From Candidatus Omnitrophota bacterium (lineage in GTDB: Bacteria; Omnitrophota; Omnitrophia; Omnitrophales; Aquincolibacteriaceae): a DNA stretch of 64,000 bases. The stretch covers positions 65,238 through 129,237 of the forward strand of contig JBAYVF010000001.1 in assembly GCA_041674705.1 (NCBI GenBank), given 5' to 3'. Both the position numbers and the translations under genes were made by a program. Under the pieces are notes generated by a model, which ran no database searches, was not told where the DNA came from, and was given only the letters and a program-made list of their open reading frames with translations. Positions 4,623-62,696 of the stretch are shown piece by piece. Every line of letters starts with the position of its first letter. The first letter of the stretch is position 1.

Positions 4623-4689
4623 AAGGTGTACGGCGTACGGAGTACGGCTAGAAAGATTCCGCTTGGCGCCGTACGCCTTACACCGTACG
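4623..4689. repeat. Word-hairpin element (GTACGG family) between divergent rnc and argC
   Basis: Left arm aaggtgtacggcgtacggagtacgg and right arm cgccgtacgccttacaccgtacg are imperfectly complementary. Both arms are made of tandem GTACGGnG / CnCCGTAC words. Confidence 0.8.
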
Positions 4690-4707
4690 AATTCGTAACT
4701 TCTTAAA

Positions 4708-4736
4708 TTGACAAAGGATAGAGCCATTTCTATAAT
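4708..4736 (+). promoter_or_regulatory. Consensus sigma70 promoter of the arg operon
   Basis: TTGACA (4708-4713), exactly 17 nt, TATAAT (4731-4736). This supports the argC start at 4786 rather than the ORF-track start at 4708. Confidence 0.75.
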
Positions 4737-4785
4737 ACCGAACTCATCGGTTTATAACGTCCTTAAAGGAGAAAAAGACACTCAA

Positions 4786-5892
4786 ATGTTGAATTGTGCG
4801 GTTCTTGGCGCCACGGGGTATACCGGAGCCGAACTCACGAAGCTGCTTCTGGCCCATCCCCACGTCCGGGTCACCCTCTTGACCACCCGGCAGGAAAAAC
4901 CCATTGCCCTTCGCGAAGTCCTGCCGTCGGTCGCAAAAGATATGACTCTCGAGATCACGCCCTACTCCTTCGATCAGGTGAAGAAAAAGGCGGATGTGGT
5001 CTTTTTGTGCCTGCCTCACACCGAGGCGATGACCGCGGCCGAACAGCTTCTCGGAGCCGGCAAGGTGGTGATCGATCTTTCCGCGGATTTTCGCCTGAGA
5101 GATAAAAAGATCTATGAAAAATGGTATGGGGTAAATCACGTCGCGCCCCAGTATCTTTCCAAGGCCGTGTATGGGCTTTGCGAAGTGAATAAGGAAAAGA
5201 TCAAAAAAGCGGATCTGATCGCGAACCCCGGCTGCTATCCCACAGGGCCGTCCTTGGCGCTGATCCCTTTGTTGAAGAAAAAACTGATCGACCCCAGGTC
5301 CATCATCATCAATGCGGCTTCGGGTGTGAGCGGCGCCGGGAAAAAGCTTGTGACGGCGACTCATTTTTGCGAGGCGGCCGAGAATTACAGCGCCTATAAG
5401 GTGAATAAGCATCAGCATATCCCCGAGATCGAACAGACGCTTTCGGAGGCGGCCGGAAAACCCGTCAAGATCACATTTGTGCCGCACTTATTGCCCGTGA
5501 ACCGGGGTATTCTTGCGACGATCTATGTCGAAGCGACGGGAAAAGCGACGGTCCCAATACCAATCAATCGGAGCAAAGCGGAGATTGGGGTCGTCCCCGT
5601 CAACCATTTAGGAAATAAAGTCAAGACGGGGACGGAATCTCTGATCCGGAAGACTCTGGAAACGGCTTACGCCAAGGCGCCGTTCGTCAGGATCAAGCCC
5701 GCGGGACAATACCCGTGCCTGAAGGATGTGCAGCACACGAATTTTTGCGATGTGGGTGTGAGTGTCAATGAGGAAACCGGTCGGGTCGTGATCATCACCG
5801 CGATCGATAATCTCGTCAAAGGCGCGGCCGGCCAGGCGGTGCAGAACATGAACCTCCGGTTCGGTTTTCCGGAAGAAGCGGGGCTTTTGTAA
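4786..5892 (+). CDS. argC: N-acetyl-gamma-glutamyl-phosphate reductase
   Basis: MLNCAVLGATGYTGAEL Rossmann N-terminus, the active-site region NPGCYPTG, and a C-terminal DNLVKGAAGQAVQNMN. The gene carries an extra roughly 28-aa segment (see repeat 5547-5635). Confidence 0.9.
   Translation: MLNCAVLGATGYTGAELTKLLLAHPHVRVTLLTTRQEKPIALREVLPSVAKDMTLEITPYSFDQVKKKADVVFLCLPHTEAMTAAEQLLGAGKVVIDLSADFRLRDKKIYEKWYGVNHVAPQYLSKAVYGLCEVNKEKIKKADLIANPGCYPTGPSLALIPLLKKKLIDPRSIIINAASGVSGAGKKLVTATHFCEAAENYSAYKVNKHQHIPEIEQTLSEAAGKPVKITFVPHLLPVNRGILATIYVEATGKATVPIPINRSKAEIGVVPVNHLGNKVKTGTESLIRKTLETAYAKAPFVRIKPAGQYPCLKDVQHTNFCDVGVSVNEETGRVVIITAIDNLVKGAAGQAVQNMNLRFGFPEEAGLL
5547..5635. repeat. In-frame palindromic insertion inside argC
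   Basis: Two adjacent hairpins. The first is cccaat/ccaatc ... gattgggg (5553-5590). The second is a perfect 9-nt inverted repeat GTCCCCGTC (5593-5601) / GACGGGGAC (5625-5633). Together they encode TVPIPINRSKAEIGVVPVNHLGNKVKTG, which I do not recall in ArgC proteins. Confidence 0.6.
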
Positions 5893-5893
5893 T

Positions 5894-7114
5894 ATGAAGA
5901 AACCTTTTTGGAAAAAAGAGAAGAACGGTTCGGTGACCACGCCGAAGGGTTTTGTGGCCGGGGGCATTCACGCCGGGATCAAAAAGAAAAAGAAAAAATA
6001 CGACGTCTCCCTGACTTATTCCAAAACACCGTGCGTTGCCGCCGGGACTTTTACCACCAATCGCGCGAAGGCGTGGCCGGTGATCTATTCGATGAAAGCC
6101 ATTCACGCCTCGAAGCATCACGCGATCCTCGGGCCGAGCGGGAACGCCAACTGCCTGAACGGTCCGATCGGCAAGAAAGCGGTCGATGAGCTGACATGGG
6201 AAGCGGCGAAATGCCTGGACGTTCTGCCTCAGGAGATCCTGCTCGCGCAGACGGGGATCATCGGGGTTCCTTTCCCGATCACCTGCGTGAAACGGGCGAT
6301 GCCAAAACTTGTGAAGCGTCTTTCTGAAACCGGCGGCCACGGCGCGGCCAAAGGGATCCTGACGACCGATCTTTCCAGTAAAGAGATCGCGCTCTCGGTG
6401 GAACTGGGAGGAAAAAAAGTCACGATCGCGGCATGCGCGAAGGGCGCCGGGATGGTGCATCCCAATATGGCGACCATGCTTTGCTTTATCACGACCGATT
6501 GCGCGATCACGAAATCGCTTCTCCGGCGGGCGGTGCGCCACGCGGCGGATGATACGTTCAACCAGATGGCGATCGACAATGACATGAGCACGAACGATAT
6601 GGTGCTTTGCCTCGCGAACGGGGAAGCGGGAAATCCTCCGATCCAGAAGATCGGCAAGGATTACTGGATGTTCCGGGAAACCCTGGAAGAAGTCATGCGC
6701 TATATTGCCCACGAAATGGTGACGGACGGCGAGGGCGTGACGCATGTATGCCGGCTCCGGCTCTCGGGCGCGAAGACGCCTACGGACGCCGAACGGGCCG
6801 CGCGGCAGATCGCCAACTCCATGCTTTTCAAGACCATGCTTGCGGGATCGAACCCGAACTGGGGTCGCATCGCGGCCGCGGTCGGCGCCAGCGGCGTGGA
6901 TTTCAATCCCAACCATCTGAGCATCTGGTTCGGGGACGCGCAAGTGGTCAACCTGGGAAGATTGCGGGTCTTGAATCTTCCGAAGGCGCGGCGCATTCTG
7001 CAGAAAAAAGAATACACGATCGATGTCGTGATCGGAAAGGGCCGCGGGCGGGCGGAGTTCATCACCTGCGATCTCACGACGAAGTACGTGTTGATCAACG
7101 CTGCATACTCCTAA
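5894..7114 (+). CDS. argJ: Bifunctional ornithine acetyltransferase / N-acetylglutamate synthase
   Basis: 406-aa ORF containing the ArgJ autoproteolysis region PNMATMLCFITTDC. Located in the arg operon, 1 nt after the argC stop. Confidence 0.9.
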   Translation: MKKPFWKKEKNGSVTTPKGFVAGGIHAGIKKKKKKYDVSLTYSKTPCVAAGTFTTNRAKAWPVIYSMKAIHASKHHAILGPSGNANCLNGPIGKKAVDELTWEAAKCLDVLPQEILLAQTGIIGVPFPITCVKRAMPKLVKRLSETGGHGAAKGILTTDLSSKEIALSVELGGKKVTIAACAKGAGMVHPNMATMLCFITTDCAITKSLLRRAVRHAADDTFNQMAIDNDMSTNDMVLCLANGEAGNPPIQKIGKDYWMFRETLEEVMRYIAHEMVTDGEGVTHVCRLRLSGAKTPTDAERAARQIANSMLFKTMLAGSNPNWGRIAAAVGASGVDFNPNHLSIWFGDAQVVNLGRLRVLNLPKARRILQKKEYTIDVVIGKGRGRAEFITCDLTTKYVLINAAYS

Positions 7115-7122
7115 AAAAGGAA

Positions 7123-7191
7123 AGAGCGGATAGCGTAGAGCGTATAGGAAAAAAGTTTTTTCTAAACGCCGAACGCTCCACCCTCTACGCT
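7123..7191. repeat. Word-hairpin element (AGCGTAGAGCG family), argJ|argB junction
   Basis: agagcggatagcgtagagcgtatagg ... taaacgccgaacgctccaccctctacgct. The arms are imperfectly complementary and the loop is A/T-rich. Confidence 0.75.
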
Positions 7192-7197
7192 AAAAAA

Positions 7198-8052
7198 ATG
7201 AAAGAATACATCGAAAAAGCGCAGGCCCTGGTCGAGGCGCTTCCTTACATCCAGAAATTCCGCGGTAAAGAGATCCTGATCAAGTACGGTGGCGCGGCCC
7301 TGACCTATCAGGAAGTCCGTGACATGGTGCTCCAGGACCTTGTCTTCATGAGCTATGTCGGGATCCGGCCCATTCTCATTCACGGCGGCGGAAAATTCAT
7401 CACCGATGCCATGAAGAAAAAAGGCGTCCAGAGCCAGTTCGTGAACGGACTCCGCGTGACGGACAAGGCGACGATCGAGGTCGTCAACGAAACCCTGGCC
7501 GAGCTCAACAAGAGCATTGTCCATGATATCGAACGCCTCGGCGGCTCCGCGGTCGGACTCTCCGGGTACGATGCCGAGATCCTGAACGTGGTGAAACACA
7601 CCGAGAACGGCGACGTAGGTTTTGTCGGCGATGTGTCTTCCGTGAATACGGTGCTTCTCAAGGAACTCACGGAGTTCGGAAGGATCCCGGTGATCTTTCC
7701 GGTGGGAAAAGGTCCGGACGGTGAAATGTATAACGTGAACGCGGACGAGGCGGCGGCCAATATCGCGGCCGCCATGCACGTGCCGAAATTCATGGTACTT
7801 ACCAACGTCAAAGGGATCCTCCGGGACCCCGCCCATGAAGAGACGCTGATCCCTTCGCTTCGCGTGAGCGAGACGCAGCAACTGATCGATCAGAAGATCA
7901 TCACGGGGGGCATGATCCCTAAGGTGAAGGCCTGTATCGACGCGCTTCAAGGCGGCGTCCAAAAAGCGCATATCATCGATGGCCGGATCACACACGCCCT
8001 TTTGCTCGAAATTTTTACCGATCAAGGGATCGGAACGGAGATAACGCTCTAG
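7198..8052 (+). CDS. argB: Acetylglutamate kinase
   Basis: The true start is the ATG at 7198 (MKEYIEKAQALVEALPYIQKFRGKEILIKYGGAAL). The upstream extension in the ORF track (from 6607) overlaps argJ. Amino-acid-kinase motifs (HGGG, NVNAD) are present. Confidence 0.9.
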   Translation: MKEYIEKAQALVEALPYIQKFRGKEILIKYGGAALTYQEVRDMVLQDLVFMSYVGIRPILIHGGGKFITDAMKKKGVQSQFVNGLRVTDKATIEVVNETLAELNKSIVHDIERLGGSAVGLSGYDAEILNVVKHTENGDVGFVGDVSSVNTVLLKELTEFGRIPVIFPVGKGPDGEMYNVNADEAAANIAAAMHVPKFMVLTNVKGILRDPAHEETLIPSLRVSETQQLIDQKIITGGMIPKVKACIDALQGGVQKAHIIDGRITHALLLEIFTDQGIGTEITL

Positions 8053-8116
8053 CGGATAGCGCAGAGCGTGGAGAGAATAGAAAAAACTCTACGCTAAACG
8101 CTCCCCGCTGTACGCT
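8051..8116. repeat. Word-hairpin element (AGCGCAGAGCG family), argB|argD junction
   Basis: agcggatagcgcagagcgtggagag ... ctctacgctaaacgctccccgctgtacgct. Same word family as 7123-7191. Confidence 0.75.
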
Positions 8117-8123
8117 AAAAATT

Positions 8124-9317
8124 ATGAAAACAGCCGACGTTCAAAAATTGTACGAACAATACGTGATGCCGACCTACACCCGGGTGCCGGTGTGCCTGGT
8201 CAAAGGGAAAGGCACGCGTGTCTGGGACCTTGAAGGAAAAGAGTATCTCGATTTCTTCCCCGGCTGGGCGGTTTCCGGGATCGGCCACTGCCATCCGGTC
8301 GTGGTGAACGCGATCAAGGAGCAGGCGAAAAAGATCCTCCATATCTCGAATAATTTTTTTAATATCAAGCAGGCCGAGCTCGCGAAGACCATTTCCGAGG
8401 CGTCTTTTCCGTCGCGCGTGTTTTTCTGTAATAGCGGCGCCGAGGCGAACGAAGGCGCGATCAAATTCGCCAAAAAGTACGGGAACGAGACCGGACGCTT
8501 TGAGATCATCACCATGAAGAATTCTTTTCACGGGAGAACGCTTGCCGCGATGAGAGCCACGGGACAGGAGAAATTCCACCAGGGTTTTCAGCCGCTCATG
8601 GAAAAATTCCTCCACGCGGATTTCAACGACCTGGAGTCGGTCAAAAAACTTGTGACCGACAAAACGATCGCGATCATGCTGGAGCCGATCCAGGGAGAAG
8701 GCGGGGTCTCCGTGGCGACCCAGGAGTTTCTCCGGGGCCTGCGGAAGCTTTGCGATGAAAAAGACATGCTTCTCATCCTGGATGAAGTGCAGACCGGCGT
8801 GGGCCGCACGGGAAAAATGTTCGCGTACCAGCATTACGATCTCGAACCGGATATCATGACGCTCGCCAAGACCTTGGGCGGCGGAGTTCCGATCGGAGCT
8901 TTTGTCGTGAACCGGAAGATCAAAAAAGAAGTGTTGACCACCGGCATGCACGGCTCAACTTTCGGCGGGAACCCGCTTGTGTGCGCGGCGAGCCTCGCGG
9001 TCTTCAAGGCGATCAAAAAAGAAAAGTTGCTCACGAACACGATTCGCATGGGAGAACTTCTCGAACAGGAATTCCAGAAGCTCAAAGCAAAATATCCCGT
9101 GATCGAAAGCACGCGGGGCATTGGGCTCATGCGGGGCCTGAAGCTCAAGGAGCCCTCCGCGCCTTACGCGGATGAAGCGCGCGCTCAAGGGTTTCTTATC
9201 AACGCGACGCAAGGCGATATCCTGAGGATCATGCCTCCGATGACGGTTTCAGTTAAAGAGATCAAACTCGGTATGAAGATTTTAGACCGTGTGTTCGCGA
9301 AATTAATGAAGAAATAA
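8124..9317 (+). CDS. argD: Acetylornithine aminotransferase (class III PLP aminotransferase)
   Basis: 397-aa ORF with NSGAEANEGAIKFA, LILDEVQTGVGRTGKMFA and TLAKTLGGGVPIGA (PLP-lysine region). Arg operon context. Confidence 0.9.
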   Translation: MKTADVQKLYEQYVMPTYTRVPVCLVKGKGTRVWDLEGKEYLDFFPGWAVSGIGHCHPVVVNAIKEQAKKILHISNNFFNIKQAELAKTISEASFPSRVFFCNSGAEANEGAIKFAKKYGNETGRFEIITMKNSFHGRTLAAMRATGQEKFHQGFQPLMEKFLHADFNDLESVKKLVTDKTIAIMLEPIQGEGGVSVATQEFLRGLRKLCDEKDMLLILDEVQTGVGRTGKMFAYQHYDLEPDIMTLAKTLGGGVPIGAFVVNRKIKKEVLTTGMHGSTFGGNPLVCAASLAVFKAIKKEKLLTNTIRMGELLEQEFQKLKAKYPVIESTRGIGLMRGLKLKEPSAPYADEARAQGFLINATQGDILRIMPPMTVSVKEIKLGMKILDRVFAKLMKK

Positions 9318-9323
9318 ATGTAT

Positions 9324-9384
9324 GTCATTCCCGCGAAGGCGGGAATCCAGAAGTGGATCCCCGATAGAAGCATTCGGGGATGAC
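9324..9384. repeat. GTCAT...ATGAC nested palindromic element, copy 1
   Basis: gtcattcccgcgaaggcgggaatccagaagtggatccccgatagaagcattcggggatgac. It has terminal inverted repeats plus two internal hairpins. Located at the argD|argF junction. Confidence 0.85.
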
Positions 9385-9404
9385 GTGATGAAAAGGGGTT
9401 ATGC

Positions 9405-10334
9405 ATGTTCAAATCATTGATTTCCATTAACGACCTCAGCACCGAAGAGATCCGGAAGATCATGGAGCTCGCGGCCAAGGTCAAGGCCCGGCCGCAGGAA
9501 GTCCGGGACGCGCTTGAAGGCCACATCTTCGGTTTTATTTTCGAGAAGCCCTCGACCCGGACTTGGGTCTCGTTTCAGGCCGGTATTTATTCGATGGGCG
9601 GTGGCGCCATTTATCTGGGTCCCGAGGATATCAAACTCGGCGTCCGGGAAGAAGTGCGGGACGTGGCGCGCGTCTTGTCGCGTTACCTTTCGGGCGTGGT
9701 TATGCGGACCTTCTCGCATTGGACCATCACCGAATTCCAGGATTATTTTGAAAAACCCGTGATCAACGGCTTAAGCGACCTCGAACATCCGTGCCAGGCG
9801 CTGGCCGATTACATGACACTTTATGAAAAGATCCCGGCGGAGAAAGATCCGGTGCTCGCGTTCGTGGGGGACGGCAATAACGTCCTGCATTCCCTGATGC
9901 TTGTCGCCGCGAAACTCGGCGCGAAGATCCGGTACGCGACGCCCAAAAAATATCAGCCCAAGCCGAAGCTTCTTGCGCTGGCCCGGCAGATCGCCAAAAA
10001 AACCGGCGCGGTGATCGAAGGTTTTCTCGACCCCGTGGAAGCCGTGAAGGGCGCGGATGCGGTCTACACGGATGTGTGGGTCAGCATGGGCGAAGAAGCC
10101 ATGCGGCAAAAAAAGCTCAAGGACTTTAAAGGCATGCAGGTCAACAAGGCGCTCCTCGCGCACGCGAAAAAAGACGCGCTTGTGATGCATTGCCTGCCGG
10201 CGCACCGGGGTGAAGAGATCACCAATGACGTGATGGAAAGTAAAAACTGCGTCGTGTTCGACGAGGCCGAGAACCGGCTCCATATTCAGAAAGCCATTTT
10301 ACTTTATCTGTTTAACCAAGGAGCAATTCAATAG
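9405..10334 (+). CDS. argF: Ornithine carbamoyltransferase
   Basis: Carbamoyl-phosphate binding motif FEKPSTRTWVSF, plus HCLPAHRGEEI. 309 aa. Confidence 0.92.
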   Translation: MFKSLISINDLSTEEIRKIMELAAKVKARPQEVRDALEGHIFGFIFEKPSTRTWVSFQAGIYSMGGGAIYLGPEDIKLGVREEVRDVARVLSRYLSGVVMRTFSHWTITEFQDYFEKPVINGLSDLEHPCQALADYMTLYEKIPAEKDPVLAFVGDGNNVLHSLMLVAAKLGAKIRYATPKKYQPKPKLLALARQIAKKTGAVIEGFLDPVEAVKGADAVYTDVWVSMGEEAMRQKKLKDFKGMQVNKALLAHAKKDALVMHCLPAHRGEEITNDVMESKNCVVFDEAENRLHIQKAILLYLFNQGAIQ

Positions 10335-10335
10335 A

Positions 10336-10470
10336 CAATTACCAATAACCAAGAAACAAATACCAAACAAGAACCAATTTCCAAAATTCAAGTCTCAAAC
10401 GGGTTGTTGTTTGATTATTGGAATTTGATCATTGTTTGGTTATTGCATCTTGATTATTGGTTATTTAATT
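10336..10470. repeat. Long AT-rich word hairpin (CCAATAACC / TTGGTTATTGG family), copy 1
   Basis: The left arm is caattaccaataaccaagaaacaaataccaaacaagaaccaatttccaaaattcaag. The right arm is an imperfect complement that ends cttgattattggttattt. Located at the argF|argG junction. Confidence 0.75.
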
Positions 10471-10506
10471 CGACGCGTTTCAAGTCTAAGAAGAAGGAAT
10501 ATTATT

Positions 10507-11697
10507 ATGAAAAAGGTAGTGCTTGCATACTCAGGGGGTCTGGATACCTCGTGCGCGGTGAAATGGCTCGGGGAACAGCACGAGCTTGAGGTGATCTGTT
10601 TCTGCGCGTTCATCGGCGAAGTAAAGGACAAAGCCCCGCTCATCAAAAGGGCCAAGGCCGCTGGCGCGATCAAGACCTATATCGTGGACCTTAAAAAAGA
10701 ATTCGCCCGGGATTACATTATGCCGGCGCTTTGGGCGCACGCGCGCTACGAAGGCAAGTACCCGCTCGCGACCGCGCTCGGCCGGCCGCTCATCGCAAAG
10801 CATCTTGTGGAAGTCGCTCAAAAAGAAGGCGCGGAATTTGTGTCGCATGGTTGCACCGGTAAAGGGAACGACCAGGTGCGGCTCGAAGTCGGCGTTCGAA
10901 CGCTCGACGCGGGCCTCAAGATCATCGCGCCTTTAAGGGAATGGGAATTCAAGACGCGCGAGGAAGAGATCGAATACGCGAAGGAAAAAAATATTCCGAT
11001 CGACGTGACGAAAAAAAGCATTTATTCCATCGATAAGAACATCTGGGGCATTGCAATCGAAGCCGGGATCCTGGAAGATCCCATGGTCGAACCTCCGGAA
11101 GGCGCGTATGTCATGACCTGCGCCCCGGGAAAAGCGCCCAAGAAACCGCGTTACATTGATATCGTTTTTGAAAAAGGCGTGCCGGTCAAATTGAACGGTG
11201 TCCGGATGCCCTTGGTCGAGCTGATCGAGAAACTGAACCAGGTCGCGGGCCAGTACGGCGTCGGACGGTTTGACATGATCGAGAACCGGCTTGTGGGGAT
11301 CAAGAGCCGCGAGGTGTACGAAGCGCCGGCCGCGGATGTGCTCCTGAAAGCCCACGAAGAACTCGAAGGGTTTGTCATGGACCGTGAATTCCTCCATTAC
11401 AAGAGACTGCTCACCGAGAAATACGCGGAGCTCGTTTATTTCGGGCTTTGGTTCTCGCCCCTCAAAAAATCGCTCGACGCGTTCTTCGCGTCCAACCAGG
11501 CGCGCGTGACAGGGAAGGTCAGGATCAAACTCGACCGGGGCCACGCGATCTGTGTCGGCCGCGAATCGAAGTATGCTCTCTATAAAGAAAAACTCGCCAC
11601 GTACTCCAAGGGCGATCTGTTCGACCGGAAAGCCGCGACCGGATTCATGAAGATCTGGGGCTTGCCGTACGAGGGAATGTATCAGCGGAAGGCGTAA
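10507..11697 (+). CDS. argG: Argininosuccinate synthase
   Basis: Start at MKKVVLAYSGGLDTS (the ATP pyrophosphatase SGGxDTS motif). The ORF-track start at 10432 lies inside the hairpin repeat. Confidence 0.92.
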   Translation: MKKVVLAYSGGLDTSCAVKWLGEQHELEVICFCAFIGEVKDKAPLIKRAKAAGAIKTYIVDLKKEFARDYIMPALWAHARYEGKYPLATALGRPLIAKHLVEVAQKEGAEFVSHGCTGKGNDQVRLEVGVRTLDAGLKIIAPLREWEFKTREEEIEYAKEKNIPIDVTKKSIYSIDKNIWGIAIEAGILEDPMVEPPEGAYVMTCAPGKAPKKPRYIDIVFEKGVPVKLNGVRMPLVELIEKLNQVAGQYGVGRFDMIENRLVGIKSREVYEAPAADVLLKAHEELEGFVMDREFLHYKRLLTEKYAELVYFGLWFSPLKKSLDAFFASNQARVTGKVRIKLDRGHAICVGRESKYALYKEKLATYSKGDLFDRKAATGFMKIWGLPYEGMYQRKA

Positions 11698-11747
11698 AGG
11701 CGTACGGCGTAACGCGAAGCCTTTTCGCCGTACTCCGTACACCGTAC
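11691..11747. repeat. Word-hairpin element (GTACGG family), argG|argH junction
   Basis: A core perfect stem GTACGGCG / CGCCGTAC is flanked by more imperfectly paired GTACGG-type words. The element overlaps the argG stop codon. Confidence 0.75.
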
Positions 11748-11764
11748 AAAGGATGGTGATTGTT

Positions 11765-13141
11765 ATGGCAAAGAAATTATGGGGCGGAAGATTCAAAAAG
11801 GATATGCATCCGGCGCTCAAGTGTTTCAGCTATTCGCTTGAGACGGACAAGGAACTTTTTGACGCCGAGATCTGTGTGAACGCTGCCTACGCGAAAATGC
11901 TCGCGAAAGTGGGGCTGATCACCACGGCGGAATCGAAAGCCATTTTACGCGGCCTCAAGTCCGTGGCCCGGGCCTTAAAAGGCCAGGACCTCGCGGCGTA
12001 CGCGGACAAGTACGAAGATGTCCACACGCTGATCCAGATGGAACTCGAGAAAAAAGCGGGCGCCGTGGCCAAGAAGATCCACACCGGCCGGAGCCGGAAC
12101 GACCTGGTCATCACCTCGACCCGCATTTACCTCCGTGAAAAGACCGCGGAGATCTGGGTCGGGATCAAAAAACTTCAAAAGGCGCTCGTAACCGCGGCCG
12201 ACAAAGCGAACGGTCTGATGATCCCCGGGATGACGCATCTAAGGAAAGCCCAGCCCGTGCTTCTGGCGCATCATTTACTGGCCTATGTCGAAATGCTCGA
12301 GGAAGACAATGCCCGGCTCGCGGATTCGATGAAAAGGATCAACATTTTGCCGCTCGGTTCCGCGGCCCTCGCGGGTTCCGCGCTTCCGCTCGACCAGAAA
12401 TTCCTCGCCAGGGAACTGGGGTTCTCCGGGATCGCCAAAAACAGCATGGCCGCGGTAAGCGACCGGGGCTCTCTGGCGGAATTTCTCTCCGTGCTTTCCA
12501 TTCTGTGGGCGCATCTCTCCAGGCTTTCGGAGGATTTCATTCTTTGGAATTCCGAGGCGTTCGGTTATGTAGAACTCGACGACGCGTTCGCGACCGGTTC
12601 GAGTCTTATGCCGCAAAAGAAAAACCCGGACGTGTTTGAACTCGTGCGGGGAAGGGCCGGTGTGATCTTCGGTTATCTCCAGGCCATTCTGACCGTGCAA
12701 AAAGGTCTGCCGCTTTCTTATAACCGCGATCTTCAGGAAGACAAGCCCGGCGTGTTCGATGCCGTAAAAAAGACCGCGACCGCGCTCGAGCTTCTGGCGC
12801 TGGCCGTGGGTTCGGCGACCTGGCACAAGAAGGCGCTTTTGAAATCCCTCGACGACGACAGCCTTTTCGCGACCGACATTCTGGAATATCTCGTGCAGAA
12901 AAAAGTCCCCTTCACTGAGGCCCATGAACTTGTGGGACGGACGGTGCGCCACGCGATCGAAACCGAAAAGCGGCTTCGCGAGTGGACGGTCCAGGAGTGG
13001 CAGAAATTCTCGCCCAAGTTCGGCGCGGACATCCATGATCTTTTTTGCGCGTTAGAATCCGTGAAAGGCAAAAAAACGATCGGAAGTACGCATCCCGTGC
13101 GGGTGAAGCAAGCCATCGCGGAGTGGAAAAAAAACTTGTGA
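11765..13141 (+). CDS. argH: Argininosuccinate lyase
   Basis: MAKKLWGGRF N-terminus, the fumarate-lyase signature region GSSLMPQKKNPD, and TGRSRNDLV. Confidence 0.92.
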   Translation: MAKKLWGGRFKKDMHPALKCFSYSLETDKELFDAEICVNAAYAKMLAKVGLITTAESKAILRGLKSVARALKGQDLAAYADKYEDVHTLIQMELEKKAGAVAKKIHTGRSRNDLVITSTRIYLREKTAEIWVGIKKLQKALVTAADKANGLMIPGMTHLRKAQPVLLAHHLLAYVEMLEEDNARLADSMKRINILPLGSAALAGSALPLDQKFLARELGFSGIAKNSMAAVSDRGSLAEFLSVLSILWAHLSRLSEDFILWNSEAFGYVELDDAFATGSSLMPQKKNPDVFELVRGRAGVIFGYLQAILTVQKGLPLSYNRDLQEDKPGVFDAVKKTATALELLALAVGSATWHKKALLKSLDDDSLFATDILEYLVQKKVPFTEAHELVGRTVRHAIETEKRLREWTVQEWQKFSPKFGADIHDLFCALESVKGKKTIGSTHPVRVKQAIAEWKKNL

Positions 13142-13150
13142 GGTGCCAAG

Positions 13151-14428
13151 ATGCCCAGGACTGATTTCCACGAAGAGAAGATGCACGATTTCTATTATAA
13201 GAAGGGCGAGCTTTATTGTGACAAGGCCCGCATCGCGAAGATCCTGAAAAAAACCGGCACCCCCGCTTATATCTACAGCCACAAGACCTTCGTCGAACAT
13301 CTCGCCAAGCTCCAGAAGGCGTTCCGCGCCGCGAAGCCCTTGATCTGCTATTCCGTCAAGGCCAACTCGAACCTCGCGGTGCTCCGCGCGCTCGTCAAAA
13401 AAGGCGCCGGCCTCGATATCGTTTCAGGCGGCGAACTTTTCCGCGCGAAGAAAGCGAAGTGCCTCGGGAAAAAGATCGTTTACGCCGGCGTGGGGAAGAC
13501 GGCCGAAGAGATCCGCGCCGCGATCAAGGCGCGCATCCTTCTTTTCAATGTCGAATCCATTCCGGAGCTCGAGCAGATCAACGCGATCGCCAAAAAGATG
13601 CGCAAGAAAGTGAACGTGTCGCTCCGGATCAACCCCAATGTCGATCCTCACACGCACGAATACATCACGACCGGCAAGGCCGAGACCAAGTTCGGCATCG
13701 ATTTCGAGAAAGCCCGGGAAATATTCCTGGGCTCGAAGCGTTTCACGAACGCGCTTGTGTGCGGCGTGCATGTGCACATCGGTTCCCAGATCGAGACCGG
13801 CGACCCGTTCGTCGAGGCGTTCCAGAAGATCGTGGAATTCATCGCCGAGCTCGAAGAAAGCGGCATCAAGATCAAGTTCCTGAACCTGGGCGGCGGCCTG
13901 GGAGCGATCTATAGTGACGAGAACCCGCAGACCGCGGAGGCATTCGCCAGGAAGATCCTCCCGATCTTCAAAAAACGGAAATTCCAGCTGATCTTTGAGC
14001 CGGGGCGTTTTATCGCGGCCAATAGCGGCATTCTCGCGACCCGGGTGATCTATGTGAAAGAGACCGACGTGAAGAAATTCGCGATCGTGGATGCCGGCAT
14101 GAACGATTTTATCCGGCCTGCTTTTTATAACGCGTTCCACCACATCTGGCCCGTCGTGAAAAATGAAAAAGCGCACGGATGGATCTACGACGTCGTGGGT
14201 CCGATCTGCGAGAGCGGGGATTTTTTCGCGAAAGACCGCGAGCTTCTCGAAATGCGCGCCGGCGATGCCCTGGCTATTATGACCACCGGCGCCTACGGCT
14301 TCACCATGGCCTCCAACTACAATTCCCGTCCCCGCGCCTGCGAGGTGATGGTCAAAGGCACCACCTTCAAAGTCGTCCGCAAACGCGAAACCTACCAGGA
14401 CCTCATTAAGGGCGAACGGACCGCGTAA
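13151..14428 (+). CDS. lysA: Diaminopimelate decarboxylase
   Basis: Group IV PLP decarboxylase with YSVKANSNLAVL (PLP lysine), HIGSQ, LGGGLG and GPICESGD. It ends the arg operon. The start may be the internal Met 10 codons downstream. Confidence 0.88.
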   Translation: MPRTDFHEEKMHDFYYKKGELYCDKARIAKILKKTGTPAYIYSHKTFVEHLAKLQKAFRAAKPLICYSVKANSNLAVLRALVKKGAGLDIVSGGELFRAKKAKCLGKKIVYAGVGKTAEEIRAAIKARILLFNVESIPELEQINAIAKKMRKKVNVSLRINPNVDPHTHEYITTGKAETKFGIDFEKAREIFLGSKRFTNALVCGVHVHIGSQIETGDPFVEAFQKIVEFIAELEESGIKIKFLNLGGGLGAIYSDENPQTAEAFARKILPIFKKRKFQLIFEPGRFIAANSGILATRVIYVKETDVKKFAIVDAGMNDFIRPAFYNAFHHIWPVVKNEKAHGWIYDVVGPICESGDFFAKDRELLEMRAGDALAIMTTGAYGFTMASNYNSRPRACEVMVKGTTFKVVRKRETYQDLIKGERTA

Positions 14429-14470
14429 CACACCATTTCAACTGTGCGAGCTGGAATCGGTTCGCGGATT

Positions 14471-15890: not shown

Positions 15891-16030
15891 AATTTTCTCC
15901 TTTTTCTGATATAAGTATACTATGTGGATGCACATAATACAAGTAAATAGCCAATAGCCTACAGATCTTAGTCTCCAGCTATAAGCTCTGGGCTATATGC
16001 GAGAGGCCTTTTCTGGTAAAATTCCTCTCG

Positions 16031-18210: not shown

Positions 18211-18341
18211 AACCCGGCGCAATATTGAACTGTAACAGACTATTGAAAATCGAAGCGGACAGAAGCGAAACCGGGTCTTTGTTTTCAAAGAGTATCTGAA
18301 TTTGTTTTGAGAAATAGAAGCAGTGTACGGGACCGTATCGT

Positions 18342-18368
18342 GTGAGCCCAAAGTAGCCGTTCCCACGG
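18342..18368. repeat. Island junction motif, copy A
   Basis: gtgagcccaaagtagccgttcccacgg. Near-identical to part of copy B. Lies about 80 nt upstream of the 18447 ORF. Confidence 0.6.
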
Positions 18369-18446
18369 CAGCGAAGCAGCGCTGTGGTGTACCCGGTACC
18401 ATTCAACAAGCTGAGAGGCTTTACGAGTTAAAGCAGAGGAAAGATT

Positions 18447-50153: not shown

Positions 50154-51563
50154 TTGGATCTGTACGCGATTTCAAAAAAGGGGACAGGCTGGTTTTTAGG
50201 GAAAACCAGCCTGTCCCCTTTGTTTTTTCTGGCGCTTTGTCTTCTTCTATCAAGCTGCGGGTCCGCGACCTATCCGGAAGCCCGTTGCAAAGCAGCTCTT
50301 CAGGAGATCGCCCTCAAGGAATACAACATCCCTCACATCGAAGTCGAATTCGTCGGAACAACGCTCGGAGTATTCCTGCCTCTCGATCAACTTTTTTCGG
50401 CCGACCTTAAAGAGGCCTTGATGAGCGGAAAAGTGACGGATATGGAGAGCCTTTTTCAGCCGACGGAGGAGGCCATCGACAAAGTCGAAGATATTCTTTT
50501 TTCCATGTCGCGGGTCATGCTGAGCACCGACAAGAAGTTCGAGTTTTATTATTTGCAGGCCACCGATGTCGAAAAAAGCGGTATGGATCTGACCTTTATT
50601 GGTCAGATCGATGATCTCAAGCGGGTGCGGTTCTGGGACATCCCGCGCAGTGAATACCGAAAACGCATTATCCATGATCTTCGGATGAACCGGGCTGCGG
50701 TTTGGCACCGGTCCGTGCGGCATTTTTTCAAGGATCTGAATGAAGCCGTCGTGAGTGATGTCCAAAGCCGTTATTTCCCTAACACTTCTCAGGCCAAATG
50801 GGCTCAGGAATTCTTTTTTACGGACGCCGGAGGTTCGGTCGTGCCGCGGGGTCGCGCCGAGTGGACGGTGCTCGACCTGAAAAGCATTCCGATCCAGGAC
50901 AATGACATCGTGGTCTATGCCAAGGCCCAAGTCGCCCCCAAGGACCCAGGGGATACCGGTTTCAAATCGAAGGTGATGGAGTATTTATTCCAGATCTCCA
51001 CCGTGGACGATACGGAAAAAATACGCCGGATCATTCCGATGGCCTATCTGGACGACAAGACCGCGACGCCGGGCTTCACATTCACCCGTGATATGGTCGC
51101 CAGGAGTCTTCCCAATTGGGAAACAGAGTTCAAGACGCCGGACCTTACGATGGGGGATTTTCTTGCGCGTCAGTTTACGCGCCGGTTTCAGGCAACCGCG
51201 GCGGAAGATGAGCGGATCGCCAACACCTTCGCCAACGTCAAGCTCGTGGTCCGTTTTGAACCCCAGCCGGAACGGTGCTTTCTTTTCAACGCCGTTGCTC
51301 CGTTGAAAAATCCAAAAGAAGAAGCTTATGCCCCGGGCCGGGGGCTTCATGAGGACGTTCTGTATTTTTGGGATCGTGTGGCCCGGGAATTTGTGGAGGT
51401 ATTGCGAAGTTATAGTTTTCAGGATTATAAGTTTTTGAAGTTTCAATTGTCCCAGGGGGGGAAGACGCTGACCTGGACCGTCACGAGTGAAGACCTCGAG
51501 CTTTTTCGCCGCCACAAAAAATCCCTGAAGGACATCCTCACGCTCTCTCCCGACAACGCCTGA
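50154..51563 (+). CDS. Putative lipoprotein, function unknown (start uncertain)
   Basis: Lipobox-like LLLSSCGS. The ORF-track TTG start at 50154 places the ftsH terminator hairpin inside the first 25 codons. The alternative TTG at 50220 gives a very short signal peptide. Confidence 0.45.
   Translation: MDLYAISKKGTGWFLGKTSLSPLFFLALCLLLSSCGSATYPEARCKAALQEIALKEYNIPHIEVEFVGTTLGVFLPLDQLFSADLKEALMSGKVTDMESLFQPTEEAIDKVEDILFSMSRVMLSTDKKFEFYYLQATDVEKSGMDLTFIGQIDDLKRVRFWDIPRSEYRKRIIHDLRMNRAAVWHRSVRHFFKDLNEAVVSDVQSRYFPNTSQAKWAQEFFFTDAGGSVVPRGRAEWTVLDLKSIPIQDNDIVVYAKAQVAPKDPGDTGFKSKVMEYLFQISTVDDTEKIRRIIPMAYLDDKTATPGFTFTRDMVARSLPNWETEFKTPDLTMGDFLARQFTRRFQATAAEDERIANTFANVKLVVRFEPQPERCFLFNAVAPLKNPKEEAYAPGRGLHEDVLYFWDRVAREFVEVLRSYSFQDYKFLKFQLSQGGKTLTWTVTSEDLELFRRHKKSLKDILTLSPDNA
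50180..50228 (+). terminator. Strong Rho-independent terminator after ftsH (GGGGACAGGC hairpin)
   Basis: ggggacaggctggttttt-aggg-aaaaccagcctgtcccc followed by tttgtttttt. An A-run upstream makes it potentially bidirectional. Confidence 0.75.
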
Positions 51564-51783: not shown

Positions 51784-52371
51784 ATGGCAGAATTTAAAGG
51801 AAGCAAAACGGCTGAAAACCTCATGAAATCTTTCGCGGGCGAGTCCCAGGCGAGGATGCGCTATACCTATTACTCCAAAGTCGCCCTGAAGGAAGGCTAT
51901 CGCCAGATCTCTAATATCTTTTCAGAGACTGCGGAAAATGAGCGTGAACACGCCAAGCTTTTCTATGCTCATCTGATCAAGCATGGCCTGAATGAAAATC
52001 CTGTTACGATCAACGCGACTTATCCTGTGGCGCTCGGGGATACCCTTCATAATCTCAAATATGCCGCCGCCGGAGAGACGGAAGAATGGACGGATCTTTA
52101 TCCGTCGTTCGGCGCTGTGGCCGATCAGGAAGGTTTTTCGGATGTCGCGAGGACTTTCAAGCACGTGGCGGGAGTTGAGAAGCGCCACGCGGAGCGCTAC
52201 AACAAGCTCCACAATGCCCTGGAACAGCACAAACTTTTTGTGAAGGACGGGAAGGTCTATTGGAAATGCCTTGAGTGCGGGTATATCGTCGAGGCCTCCA
52301 AAGCGCCGGAGCGTTGCCCGGTCTGCGATCATCCGCAGGGCAATTTTGAGATCTGGATCGAAAATTATTAA
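51784..52371 (+). CDS. rbr: Rubrerythrin
   Basis: Start at MAEFKGSKTAENLMKSFAGESQARMRYTYY. Contains a ferritin-like diiron domain (E..EH pairs) and a C-terminal rubredoxin-like CLECG...CPVCDHP. An extended -10 (TGgTATAAT, 51607-51615) lies upstream. Confidence 0.9.
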   Translation: MAEFKGSKTAENLMKSFAGESQARMRYTYYSKVALKEGYRQISNIFSETAENEREHAKLFYAHLIKHGLNENPVTINATYPVALGDTLHNLKYAAAGETEEWTDLYPSFGAVADQEGFSDVARTFKHVAGVEKRHAERYNKLHNALEQHKLFVKDGKVYWKCLECGYIVEASKAPERCPVCDHPQGNFEIWIENY

Positions 52372-52372
52372 T

Positions 52373-52445
52373 AACAGACTACAGACAACAGACTACAGAC
52401 CGAAGCAAAAGCTTTTAGTCTGTGGTCTCTCGTCTCATGTCTCAT
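52373..52445. repeat. Word-hairpin element (CAGACTACAGAC family)
   Basis: aacagactacagacaacagactacagac ... gtctgtggtctctcgtctcatgtctcat. Confidence 0.75.
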
Positions 52446-52450
52446 AAAAG

Positions 52451-53490: not shown

Positions 53491-53563
53491 ACAGTACGGT
53501 GTACGGAGTACGGGGTATGGAGTGAAAGCTTTTGCTCCGTACGCCGTACTCCTTACTCGGTAC
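53491..53563. repeat. Word-hairpin element (GTACGG family)
   Basis: acagtacggtgtacggagtacggggtatggag ... ctccgtacgccgtactccttactcggtac. Confidence 0.75.
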
Positions 53564-53584
53564 CCTAAGGGGGAGGAGATTGTT

Positions 53585-60316: not shown

Positions 60317-60418
60317 AACAGTACTTGGTACATCGCATTTAGTACATAGCCAGCCGTTATGCTTTTCCAAGCACCAGGCACGATGTACCATATACTAAGT
60401 ACTATGTACTGCTTTTTT
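60317..60418 (+). terminator. Word hairpin (GTAC/AGTAC family) with T-run, likely terminator of the GH57 gene
   Basis: aacagtacttggtacatcgcatttagtacatag ... gatgtaccatatactaagtactatgtactg followed by cttttttg. Confidence 0.55.
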
Positions 60419-60533
60419 GCTTGCCTCATGGGCTTTCTCTGAATAAGATAACCAATCTTTGTTTCTACAGAATAGGTCCTATAATCCCTGCCGGGGTTTG
60501 ATCTTATAGCCAAACATCAATCGAAAGGAATCA

Positions 60534-62621
60534 ATGTCCATGAGTACTGCGAATGCTGAAAAAAGGGCTTTAATGAGCACGCTTCCGGGGGACGATGTCC
60601 GCCAGATCATGTGGCGTTTTTCCGATCGCTATGATCTTCAGATGGTGATCCAGTCCACCCGTGCGGTCGCGCGCAGCGTGGTCGCTCGTATGGTGGCCGA
60701 CAAACAGCGCCATACGCATGAATGGACCAAGGAAAAGCAGGAAATGCTCAAATCTTTTGACGAAGCGGGCATTACCGCGGCTTTTATGGAGCCGGAACAG
60801 GGCGGCTACATTGCCGGTCCGAAGAATTTGGTGCTGGCCATGATCGCGTTCGAACTTTGCTGGGTGGATGCCGGCGCCGCGACGGCAAGTCTTGCCAATA
60901 ATCTTGCGCTCGAGCCGATCCATGAAAAAGGCACTCCCGAACAGAAAATGAAATATATGGGCGGTTGCGTGCCCCCGAAACCGGGAGAGAACCGGAAGAT
61001 CATCCGCGGTTCTTTCGCGCTCACCGAACCCCTTCCTTATGTCGGCGTGGACGCCGGGATGCTTTCCGGGAAGATCCGTATCGCGGAATGGAAGGAAGGC
61101 CAGGAGCCGATGATCCAGGTCGAAAAACGCGGCCGTTTTATCACGAACATGGGCTACGCGAATTTCGTGACCGCCTCGGTCGATACCGATGACCCGCGTA
61201 TCAAATCCAGCTGCATGATCATTCTTGAAGAAGGCGATGAAGGCCTTTATGACCGCGGTGCCCCGACCCTGAAGCTGGTGCACCAGCTTTCCAGCACGCA
61301 CGATCCGATCTTTAATCTGAAGGTCCCGGCCAGCCGCATCATCGGCGGGTACACGATCAAGGATGGCGTGATCATTCCGAATTTCAATAACAGCGAAGTG
61401 ATCGAAGCGGTATTCCGTCGCACGCGCGTGACGGTCGGGATCATGACCACCGCGAAGCTCCTTTCCGCGATCGAGCCGGTGATCCGCTATCAACGCACGC
61501 GTTTCCGCGGCGGAGGCTCGGTGACTGCCGGAACGCCTCGCTACGATCTTGGTATCCAGCAAAAAGAGGATCCTTGTCATCGATTGGTTGATGTCTGGGC
61601 GACCGGTGAAGCGGGTGCCGCGCTCGGGTTCGAAGGGTCCCGTATTTTTGATGTCTTCGATGTGTTGGAGCACAAGAAAAACGAGCTTTTCAACGCGCAG
61701 GGGATCAAAGGCGCCCGCGCTCAGATGAAGGCTTTCATGGAACCGCGCAAAAAGGCGCTAGAGTATATTGAGCTTATGGCTCAGCCTGAAGCGAAGCGTG
61801 ACGCAAAACGCGTGGCGGAACTTGAAGGGGATCTGCTCGTTCAGTATCTCGTGAAGGAATCACTCGCCGATGTGTATTGCCCGGCCGGAAAACTCTGGAA
61901 CACGGGCTACGGCGCGACGATGATGCGCGAAGCCGTGAGTTTGATGGGCGGCTACGGGATCACGGAAGATTGCCCGGGATTCCTCACGCAGAAATGGTCG
62001 GATGCCCAGCTCGAAGCGACGTATGAAGGGCCCGAATGTGTGCAGCGTCTCCAGATGAGCCGTACGATGGAAAATGATCTTTTCCTCGCTCAGTTTAAGA
62101 ACTGGATCAAGGACCTGCGCGGGATCGCGAAGCGCAAACCAGAAATGGGCGCTGAAGTCCTCGCCAACGCGATGGACCTTTGGCTCTGGTCGCTTGTTTT
62201 TCTGCAAGCGAACAAGGATGCGAATGGGAAGACGCTCTATGGCGGCCAGCGCCAGGGCGTGATGTTTCCGATGGCGGATGCGCTTGCGTGGATCCTCGGC
62301 GCTCGCCAGCTCATTATGGATACGCTTGAGCTTGAGACCAAGGGGCCGGAAAATCCGACGCTCGCCGAAGGTTTACCGGGCGTTCTGAATTTCTATACGG
62401 ACCTCTCGGGCGTTCAGGCGGCTCGTACTGCCGGGGAAGTCGGTAAAATTTGCGCCGAGTTGGTTTATGGATATCAGTCGGCGGCGACGGCTCTCAAGCC
62501 ATTCGCGGAATTGCGCGCGAAGACGGACGCGAGCCTCGTCGGTATTCGTTTTTCCAAGGATCGCGCCGCGGAAGCCGTGGCTCAGGTCATGATCCCGGAA
62601 GCGCTCGATTATCCACTCTAA
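60534..62621 (+). CDS. Large acyl-CoA dehydrogenase family protein
   Basis: 695 aa. The overall ACAD-like layout includes FALTEP and a C-terminal helical domain. Followed by ETF-QO. Confidence 0.55.
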   Translation: MSMSTANAEKRALMSTLPGDDVRQIMWRFSDRYDLQMVIQSTRAVARSVVARMVADKQRHTHEWTKEKQEMLKSFDEAGITAAFMEPEQGGYIAGPKNLVLAMIAFELCWVDAGAATASLANNLALEPIHEKGTPEQKMKYMGGCVPPKPGENRKIIRGSFALTEPLPYVGVDAGMLSGKIRIAEWKEGQEPMIQVEKRGRFITNMGYANFVTASVDTDDPRIKSSCMIILEEGDEGLYDRGAPTLKLVHQLSSTHDPIFNLKVPASRIIGGYTIKDGVIIPNFNNSEVIEAVFRRTRVTVGIMTTAKLLSAIEPVIRYQRTRFRGGGSVTAGTPRYDLGIQQKEDPCHRLVDVWATGEAGAALGFEGSRIFDVFDVLEHKKNELFNAQGIKGARAQMKAFMEPRKKALEYIELMAQPEAKRDAKRVAELEGDLLVQYLVKESLADVYCPAGKLWNTGYGATMMREAVSLMGGYGITEDCPGFLTQKWSDAQLEATYEGPECVQRLQMSRTMENDLFLAQFKNWIKDLRGIAKRKPEMGAEVLANAMDLWLWSLVFLQANKDANGKTLYGGQRQGVMFPMADALAWILGARQLIMDTLELETKGPENPTLAEGLPGVLNFYTDLSGVQAARTAGEVGKICAELVYGYQSAATALKPFAELRAKTDASLVGIRFSKDRAAEAVAQVMIPEALDYPL

Positions 62622-62624
62622 AAC

Positions 62625-62696
62625 GCCGCAAGTCACAAGGCCACAAAGCCACATGACGGAAAACCTTCGTGTGGCATGTGGCATGTGCCGTGTGGC
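62625..62696. repeat. Word-hairpin element (GCCACA / TGTGGC family)
   Basis: gccgcaagtcacaaggccacaaagccacatgac ... gtgtggcatgtggcatgtgccgtgtggc. Confidence 0.75.

Follow-up and report, generated by a model that had tools for sequence, protein, structure and literature searches.

Hairpins with arms of tandem 7-nt words in a Candidatus Omnitrophota genome: candidate dispersed palindromic repeats at operon junctions, in promoter spacers and within genes

What are the long hairpins that recur between genes along a 64-kb stretch of a Candidatus Omnitrophota genome (the window, meaning the whole stretch of DNA analyzed here), and do they serve the operons in which they are found? Each arm is a short array of a 7-nt word, facing an array of the complementary word, and an initial annotation had proposed that such hairpins punctuate long operons as sites of RNase III processing or mRNA stabilization. 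The hairpins constitute one architectural class that is real and far above chance. With moderate confidence, we interpret them as dispersed non-coding palindromic repeats, similar to repetitive extragenic palindromic (REP) elements, miniature transposable elements with inverted repeats (MITEs) and Rickettsia palindromic elements (RPEs), that are copied between sites and remodeled by 7-nt slippage. Counting toward this interpretation are near-identical copies with unrelated flanks, which imply recent copying; orthologous sites that are filled in some and empty in others of 21 genomes; a word family that departs from the species tree; the lack of a sense-strand advantage together with occurrence at all junction types, which points to symmetry at the DNA level; differences in unit number, homogenized units and nested palindromes; and both the absence of elements from a low-GC island and the presence of the word GTACGG in a Pirellulales-like contig.

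Arms built from heptamers

The window contains ~15 long hairpins whose arms comprise two to five degenerate tandem 7-nt words with the complementary array opposite. The initial annotation had described at least twelve; all of the word families and sites that it named could be located, and its list lacked three additional elements (10329–10465, 35495–35605 and 15950–16000). Its word length of 6–9 nt requires correction, as the unit is essentially always 7 nt. Tandem Repeats Finder identified period-7 arrays on both arms at the sites named, and array counts of 17 for period 7 (1.15 expected from shuffles) and 6 for period 6 (0.75 expected) made these the only periods between 3 and 12 that were clearly above the shuffles with more than one array. 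The sequence GTACGGNGTACGG, with no more than one mismatch, occurs 16 times in the window compared with 0.06 expected occurrences, GTACGG copies are present at six window sites, and more than ten unrelated words coexist.

Twelve of the 14 hairpins tested had folding z-scores between -4.2 and -7.0, with none of 200 shuffles folding as well, the exceptions being the elements at 11691 (z = -1.7) and 26130 (z = -0.4 on the + strand). The 19–48 predicted pairs per hairpin are organized as 6-bp helices with a frequent mismatch at each seventh position, such that a 6-nt core is kept while the seventh base is free, and the suggestion that tandem words allow several pairing registers holds as a structural reading. 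Complementarity at the seventh base, considered as proof of arm-to-arm copying, was weak (the spacer base N of GTACGGN is complementary between arms in 39%, versus 29% expected).

Because generic hairpins are abundant at 52% GC, a sliding-window hairpin screen by minimum free energy (MFE) alone was uninformative, and lag-7 periodicity of the arms was used as the discriminator. Across 385 kb, comprising the window and 21 related loci, 35 of 2907 MFE hairpins had a lag-7 self-match of at least 0.45 in both arms, compared with ~4.5 expected if the arms were independent, and virtually every genuine heptamer array proved to be one half of a palindrome.

Several familiar identities were considered and set aside. 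Searches for known RNAs gave no match, either with Rfam covariance models at the gathering score over the whole window or with a tRNA search. The hairpins have no T-run, as the initial annotation had noted for most of those in the arg operon, and none is among the canonical terminators called elsewhere in the window (80–105, 1128–1150, 14445–14466 and 50177–50221), so they are not intrinsic terminators; nor do the words function as three-frame translation stoppers, since most elements lack a stop codon in at least one frame. The elements are also less pervasive than the "almost every operon junction" first described: they occupy ~15 of 55 junctions, or 15 of 40 gaps of at least 30 nt, and none lies in the low-GC island.

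Filled and empty sites, copies and paired arms

The left part of the window encodes, in order, an AsmA-like gene, rnc (3795–4595, - strand) and argC-argJ-argB-argD-argF-argG-argH-lysA (4786–14428, + strand). ArgF is 94–98% identical to that of ~17 Omnitrophota species represented by metagenome-assembled genomes (MAGs), and the comparison set consisted of 21 clade loci with a syntenic arg operon. Across these 21 genomes the junctions exist in two states, an overlap or 5–6-nt gap (empty) versus 50–180 nt of element (filled). The empty state is TTATGA at argB-argD, an overlap at argF-argG and 5–6 nt at argJ-argB; heptamer hairpins occupy argJ-argB in 6 of 20 genomes, argB-argD in 10 of 21, argG-argH in 9 of 17 and argF-argG in 1 of 21, and at argB-argD there are at least seven unrelated fillings among the relatives. 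The elements fill the entire spacer and end in ...ACGCTAAAAAA(T)ATG. A stop codon can come from the first word (TAG of TAGGGnn or TAGCGnn), and the ArgG tail KRKA is encoded by GCGTAAG-type words, indicating that an element can replace a C-terminus. The C-terminus of ArgG (11660–11700 and relatives) varies with the adjoining element (GMYKRKA, GMYKN, GMGE and others), and the final codons of argG, together with its stop, are recruited element sequence.

The word family does not track the species tree. At three junctions with AGCG or GTACGG words in the window, its nearest relative L013 (amino-acid identity of 95%) carries TAGGGT words instead, and AGCG words are shared with L014, a more distant genome. 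The two junction copies of a genome have its diagnostic bases in common. Orthologous elements differ in unit number, and the three left units are homogenized within a genome (three times GCG or three times GGG); both observations fit the pattern that slippage produces.

Copies with unrelated surroundings were found in several places. The 4.5-kb locus L038 contains five heptamer hairpins, two of which are copies of one another. They lie at a distance of 522 nt and match at 95% with the loop counted in; their borders are sharp, their flanks are unrelated, and no target duplication accompanies them. Locus L075 contains three 100% identical GGGACTC-hairpin modules of 97–134 nt in one reading frame, again with unrelated flanks; the direct repeat CGCTCCGAGGTGCGGG brackets copies 2 and 3, not copy 1. 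The giant open reading frame (ORF) of L075 (6–12545, at least 4179 aa) contains these modules in frame, and they encode QGLGTSSSGLVNAKDPIESLGASYESHAEGR. Within the window, two AT-rich paralogues (10320 versus 35482) are 78% identical over ~140 nt, and identities of 87–89% connect non-orthologous sites in different genomes (argG-argH of L005 with rnc-argC of L011, and argJ-argB of L001 with argB-argD of L013).

One element of the window lies within a gene, not at a junction as first assigned. This GGGACTn-word hairpin (16474–16537, inverted repeats, z = -4.22) lies in frame within the linker-coding part of a DUF1016_N + SNase gene (16031–17035), the ORF remains open through it, and the gene has 539 homologues, in which the segment is missing (P0005, P0008) or 45–57 extra nt are present. 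GGGACTC/GAGTCCC words occur in the extra segment of five of the nine genes examined, in differing arrangements and reading frames, and conservation is therefore at the nucleotide rather than the peptide level. A comparison of the window with P0001 gives identity at 54 of 56 positions for the hairpin arms and at 10 of 17 for the loop (arms versus loop, p = 3e-4); outside the hairpin, identity is 49% at fourfold sites and 65% over the gene. In other elements, several word blocks form palindromes one inside the other (L014 argJ-argB; L071 3922–4127; L089 3179–3338), an arrangement that suggests either insertion into hairpin centers or inside-out growth.

The arms co-vary between genomes, a comparison that the initial annotation had recommended. 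Eight elements from two junctions in six genomes align as one family, for which RNAalifold detected double changes in 6 of 20 pairs; in this TAG[G/C]GT family, a left-arm G-to-C change is matched by a right-arm C-to-G change, and column pair 31–64 is GC in five elements, CG in three and broken in none. Were selection acting on the sense transcript, that strand should out-fold the antisense and tolerate G-U over A-C pairs, and neither was seen. In a first set, 18 of 34 elements favored the + strand, with 57 versus 75 G-U pairs (p = 0.90), and in a larger set that included both gene orientations the split was 31 versus 32 of 63 (p = 0.72). The contexts comprised 63 co-directional, 22 divergent and 16 convergent gene pairs. 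Of the hairpins in the 63 co-directional cases, 41 begin between positions -19 and +14 nt relative to the stop codon of the preceding gene, a trivial consequence of spacers that are near zero length.

The four hairpins within the arg-lysA unit are very probably transcribed, since they lie between a perfect sigma-70 promoter (4708–4736) and a terminator (14445–14466). As GC-containing stem-loops in transcripts they resemble both intrinsic terminators and RNase III substrates, and they differ from the former in being located within operons and without a T-run. RNase III accepts duplex lengths in the range of these hairpins; the 19–48 predicted pairs span the roughly two helical turns of RNA duplex that it uses, with transcription taken from operon context. 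Incidental cleavage of the transcribed duplexes may be compatible with these data.

The architecture is not confined to the arg clade. Scanning metagenomes for GTACGG hairpins yielded 76 loci, their GC contents ranging from 0.40 to 0.76, and in contigs of 65–68% GC (L040, L071, L089) the arms are symmetrically nested heptamer blocks with GTACGG innermost. The palindromes in these Pirellulales-like contigs are 160–200 nt long (L071 3922–4127, L089 3179–3338, L040 13568–13725), and their block order is GGAGnCA, GATGAGG, GTAGTGG and central GTACGGA, mirrored on the other arm. Since the PilC/GspF protein of L071 is 69–73% identical to the matches named Pirellulales, Thermoguttaceae or Rhodopirellula, the architecture, and even the GTACGG word, is present also in Planctomycetota. 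Phage carriage was considered and set aside, as no GTACGG or TAGGGT hairpin was found in the viral contigs of IMG/VR.

The elements along the window and other repeats nearby

The hairpin elements are treated as unstranded, and the arg promoter and terminator are assigned to the + strand. The element that the initial annotation had placed between the divergent rnc and argC genes is a GTACGGn-word hairpin at 4618–4689 (inverted repeat, period-7 array, z = -4.53), upstream of the argC promoter. Orthologous copies exist only in L001, L005 and L011 and, decayed, in L022; a hairpin adjoins rnc in only ~5 of 17 related spacers examined, and on this ground we rejected a conserved autoregulatory rnc leader. 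The neighboring argC promoter (4708–4736, sigma-70-type TTGACA-17-TATAAT, 12 of 12 matches), by comparison, is conserved in all of them, and ~45 nt around it are kept in all relatives. The sequence GTAACTTCTTAAATTGACAAAGGATAGAGCCATTTCTATAATACC around this promoter (4690–4740) is near-invariant across species whose fourfold sites are only 33–64% identical to those of the window, and the conserved block comprises more than promoter sequence, with an ArgR-type operator perhaps among its parts.

The five of seven arg junctions initially described as carrying a structured repeat resolve into four with heptamer hairpins and one, argD-argF, whose repeat is of another kind. An AGAGCGn/ATAGCGT-word hairpin (7122–7186, z = -4.18) fills argJ-argB and aligns with TAGGGT-family elements of L001, L013, L015 and L022. 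The argB-argD junction is filled by a TAGCGn-word hairpin (8048–8117, z = -4.81), the first word of which supplies the argB stop codon TAG; L004, L007, L010 and L011 have the overlapping TTATGA instead. Filling argF-argG, an overlap in 18 of 21 relatives, is a long AT-rich hairpin with CCAAnAA-type words (10329–10465; arms of ~55 nt, 78% complementary; z = -5.84). At argG-argH, the GTACGGn words reported for position 11691 are present in an element (11691–11753) whose left arm runs into the 3' end of argG, but the fold is weak (z = -1.74); other species have TAGGGT, CAGAGAA, CATGAGC or GAGTTGG words at this junction. The arg-lysA unit ends 3' of lysA in a terminator-like hairpin with a T-run (14445–14466).

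A weak TAGCCnn-word hairpin (15950–16000, lag-7 self-matches of 0.50 and 0.62, dG -14.6) occupies a divergent spacer, and beyond it lies the DUF1016_N + SNase gene. A 100-aa ORF that follows this gene (17098–17400) repeats part of its SNase region, with 16755–16875 nearly the same as 17117–17192. Homologous loci have Fic, AbiEii, DNA methylase, DUF6036 or AAA_14/DUF4143 genes as neighbors, which suggests a defense or toxin-antitoxin neighborhood.

The low-GC island (18000–26100; 42–44% GC versus ~52% for the genome), which has vsr, encoding a Vsr mismatch endonuclease, at its end, is probably recently acquired DNA. Our junction census found no heptamer hairpin within it (18–26 kb), and the first array thereafter begins at 26130, just past its end. 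This array (26130–26218) comprises ~11 heptamers, CAGACnn and then CAGCCnn, around a small central hairpin, with periods of 7 and 14. The site had been listed as a family hairpin; the array is present, but it is mainly direct, and the + strand hairpin is not convincing (z = -0.42), folding being confined to the - strand (dG -44.4 with 11 G-U pairs). Just before a Fic-domain gene, at 27859–27892, there is a tandem repeat with an 11–12-nt unit (CCTAGACGATAC, 2.9 copies, 95% matches) that is unrelated to the heptamers.

The remainder of the window, which includes uvrA, an FtsH-like gene, dapF/A/B, a rubrerythrin gene and fba, contains seven further elements. GTACGGn-word hairpins lie directly 3' of the stop codon of a decarboxylase gene (34444–34512, z = -5.26), across the uvrA stop codon (47694–47772, inverted repeat, z = -4.71) and 3' of fba (53491–53565, inverted repeat with four units per arm, z = -6.97), and a GTACnnn variant lies 3' of a GH57-family gene (60320–60414, inverted repeat with a period-7 array at 60383–60410, z = -4.39). 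The core GGCGT[CA]ACGCGA...TTTTCGCCGTAC is common to the elements at 47694 and 11691 and to L011 14922. Located 3' of dapF is the AT-rich paralogue of the argF-argG element (35495–35605, z = -4.59), 3' of the rubrerythrin gene is a CAGACnA-word hairpin (52370–52447, period 7, 3.9 copies, 90% matches, z = -6.80), and between acyl-CoA dehydrogenase-like and ETF-QO-like genes is a GCCACAn/TGTGGCn-word hairpin (62625–62697, z = -5.53).

Other repeats share this DNA with the heptamer elements. A dispersed repeat of ~65 nt, GTCATTCCCGCGAAGGCGGGAATCCAG...GGATCCCCGAnAGAAGCATTCGGGGATGAC, occurs at 9325–9398 and 34585–34651 and at argD-argF of L003, L011 and L014; it contains two small hairpins with GTCAT[TC]CCCG inverted ends, its copies fill argD-argF and abut the dapF start, and its first hairpin resembles the neisserial dRS3/NIME (neisserial intergenic mosaic element) repeat ATTCCCNNNNNNNNGGGAAT. 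A third hairpin family, GGGGACAGGC.../...GCCTGTCCCC (variant GGGGACAGTCCC), occurs at 48276–48369 and 50174–50224, at argJ-argB and argH-lysA of L011 and in the argC 5' untranslated region of L007, L010, L013 and L015; it is thus present in operon junctions and the argC leader of some relatives and not of others, and the copy at 50174, with its A- and T-runs, looks like a bidirectional terminator. A structured argC-argJ spacer of ~80 nt, GTACCGC...GCGGTAC followed by ACTGCTAAnCC...GGAGAGCAGT, was observed in L002 (6590–6668), L010, L013, L014, L018 and L020. This spacer, which is not heptamer-based, is kept in many relatives, including distant ones, and could represent a true regulatory RNA; the window lacks it, with a gap of 1 nt between the two genes.

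Known repeats and competing explanations

The closest architectural precedent is the short tandemly repeated repetitive sequences (STRRs) of cyanobacteria, whose canonical words are CCCCAGT, TTGGTCA and CAACAGT. Vioque is said to have found in 1997 that STRR arrays extend helix P12 of RNase P RNA, and Elhai reportedly described in 2008 small mobile elements, termed small dispersed repeats (SDRs), that sit inside heptamer arrays. In filamentous cyanobacteria, STRRs are 7-bp repeats capable of hairpin formation, among other places between hupS and hupL, and neither their origin nor their function has an agreed explanation, transcript stabilization and translational coupling having been suggested (PMC2670836). 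The window elements likewise have a tandem 7-nt unit and form hairpins in intergenic or intercistronic DNA. They differ in host, which here is Omnitrophota and Pirellulales-like contigs rather than cyanobacteria, and in word, as none of the three STRR words, nor TAACTGA, occurs in tandem in the window; in addition, essentially every array here is palindromic, and several families coexist, nest and occur in frame in ORFs. The elements match STRRs in architecture, REPINs (REP doublets forming hairpins) in population behavior and RPEs in their in-gene copies, and they fall outside the STRRs in word and host.

REP elements are not known to leave a target-site duplication. The systems of REPs, bacterial interspersed mosaic elements (BIMEs) and REPINs with REP-associated tyrosine transposases (RAYTs) in Proteobacteria resemble the elements described here in being short, imperfect extragenic palindromes with many dispersed copies, often 3' of genes in operons, and REPINs, together with RAYTs, form families that evolve inside a genome (PMC3116915). 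Dispersed imperfect palindromes that evolve as within-genome families are what we found here. In contrast to REPs, the arms are tandem heptamers and elements are frequent in divergent spacers, and searches for a RAYT gene (Pfam/NCBIfam on selected ORFs and a crude tblastn search) came up empty for the window and for 1.12 Mb of loci, all of them genome fragments. A GTAG-like start is present only in some words (GTAGGGT, GTAGCGT, GTAGTGG) and missing from GTACGG, CAGACTA, GGGACTC, GCCACA and the AT-rich family. RPEs of Rickettsia are palindromic repeats that insert in frame into protein genes and add a peptide segment (PMC10969869). The window hairpin at 16474–16537 and the three L075 modules are likewise in-frame palindromes in ORFs, with homologues that lack them; RPEs, however, are ~150 bp long with a conserved peptide and no heptamer periodicity, whereas conservation here is at the nucleotide level. 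With MITEs, such as Chunjie of Geobacter, which sits inside an operon, and Correia of Neisseria, the elements share a non-autonomous long-hairpin form, presence/absence polymorphism and insertion into operons without disruption (PMC10969869), but they measure only 60–140 nt and have neither separate terminal inverted repeats nor a consistent duplication, of TA or otherwise. Heptamers are the commonest long simple sequence repeats in many bacteria, with slippage proposed as the cause, in the account of Mrazek 2007 given in PMC4679880. Direct TAACTGA repeats occur in Beggiatoaceae, Cyanobacteria and Bacteroidetes and are scattered over three phyla, with horizontal spread suspected; they share with our elements the 7-nt unit, an intergenic position often near start codons and scattered phyla, and differ in forming direct arrays (169 direct sets versus 1 indirect) with no predicted structure (PMC4679880), whereas here a complementary array always follows.

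Each arm consists of a few copies of a single degenerate 7-nt word, with the complementary array as the opposite arm. If the hairpins are dispersed repeats, copying would take place at the DNA level, and copies would land at the few sites tolerated in a compact genome, namely zero-length stop/start junctions, promoter spacers and in-frame gene linkers. A resident element would then gain or lose 7- or 14-nt units by replication slippage, the probable source of unit turnover; the common core of the units would allow pairing to persist in shifted registers, some force would keep both arms complementary, and the long imperfect mRNA duplex would be a by-product, perhaps an exploited one. As for how copies are made, the likeliest agent would be an enzyme with activity on single-stranded DNA hairpins, its gene lying at some other place, or else recombination copying.

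Several observations weigh against this interpretation. No consistent target-site duplication was found at the filled/empty junctions or at the L038 copies, and the combination of terminal inverted repeats and target-site duplication that typifies MITEs is absent. No transposase was found in the window ORFs or in the hairpin-dense contig L038 (NCBIfam/Pfam, selected ORFs), and a crude tblastn search with sequences of IS608 TnpA and the E. coli RAYT gave no credible match in 1.12 Mb of genome fragments; a weak match in L083 was discarded, as it spans a hairpin between ORFs that resemble, by eye, an LmbE-type deacetylase and NagB. Identity at fourfold sites between the window and its closer relatives is 53–64%, so these species are deeply diverged at neutral sites, and patchy occupancy says less for rapid turnover than it might seem to. 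Transposition leaves the 7-nt unit length unexplained, and the conservation of stems while loops drift is a constraint for which copying does not account: the in-gene stems are constrained or continually homogenized rather than neutrally decaying remnants of a dead insertion. Finally, the right arm at the in-gene site, GAGTCCCGAGGAA, is homologous to the empty-site sequence GGTCCCGGAAGAA, so that the left arm may have arisen as an inverted copy templated on the spot and not as imported DNA.

This last possibility is part of a second explanation, which we consider unlikely, in which the hairpins are a local mutational by-product without mobility. Polymerase slippage by 7 nt, together with intramolecular template switching (quasi-palindrome correction), would let a hairpin grow in situ and stay self-complementary without selection. 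The prevalence of heptamers attributed to slippage in the same account of Mrazek 2007 (PMC4679880), the unit-number changes between orthologues, the strand symmetry of the elements, the match of the in-gene word to pre-existing local sequence and long arms with balanced, symmetric irregularities, such as those of L014, would all be expected. A local process cannot explain, however, one word at six loci in 64 kb, identical multi-copy elements that include the loops and have unrelated flanks, or one word in two phyla, and arm-to-arm copying would make the seventh base of GTACGGN complementary, which the 39% versus 29% noted above does not bear out. The role foreseen in the initial annotation, in which the hairpins are selected mRNA signals (RNase III sites, 3' stabilizers or translation uncouplers) that set cistron expression in long operons, also strikes us as improbable. 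It would accommodate four hairpins inside one transcription unit, none of them terminator-like, imperfect duplexes of 20–30 bp, co-varying arms and stems more conserved than loops; the refilling of argG-argH and argB-argD by different families could mean selection for some hairpin there, and by analogy the stabilization or translational coupling suggested for cyanobacterial STRR hairpins (PMC2670836) might apply. The comparative data nevertheless lend this role no support: two data sets show no sense-strand bias in stability or G-U pairs, occupancy is patchy, with half or more of the related genomes using an overlapping stop/start at the same junctions, elements are also found in divergent promoter spacers and in frame in ORFs, the rnc-proximal hairpin is not conserved, and the many unrelated words per genome argue against a single sequence-specific reader. 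On sequence grounds, we regard RNase III or stability punctuation as neither refuted nor supported.

Binding of host factors has been proposed for some REP/BIME clusters, and by analogy the hairpins might serve the host at the DNA level, as binding or structural sites of, for example, a nucleoid factor, a topoisomerase or a replication factor, with 7-bp words as the recognition units. Strand symmetry, the conserved 6-nt core with its free seventh base, the same core in two phyla and the greater conservation of stems than loops would be consistent with such sites, but more than ten unrelated words in one window, patchy occupancy of orthologous sites and the lack of any candidate protein found make this explanation the most doubtful of those considered.

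A broader and speculative proposal, which we rate as rather unlikely, is that heptamer-array palindromes are one self-propagating class in Omnitrophota and Planctomycetota, and architecturally also in the cyanobacterial STRRs, that spreads by an undescribed mechanism with stems actively maintained. The mechanism might be a hairpin-targeting enzyme that inserts into hairpin centers and stop/start overlaps, or array copying by template switching. If this were true, the present material, especially its filled and empty sites, nested blocks and in-frame copies, could settle what STRR-type repeats are. In practical terms, the elements alter the C-terminus of a protein (ArgG), provide the stop codon of a gene (argB), add peptide segments to proteins and break translationally coupled junctions, and they will confuse gene callers and assemblers in lineages known only from MAGs. 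Heptamer hairpins are not a cyanobacterial oddity, and the elements described here provide material with which models of copying, slippage and selection can be told apart.

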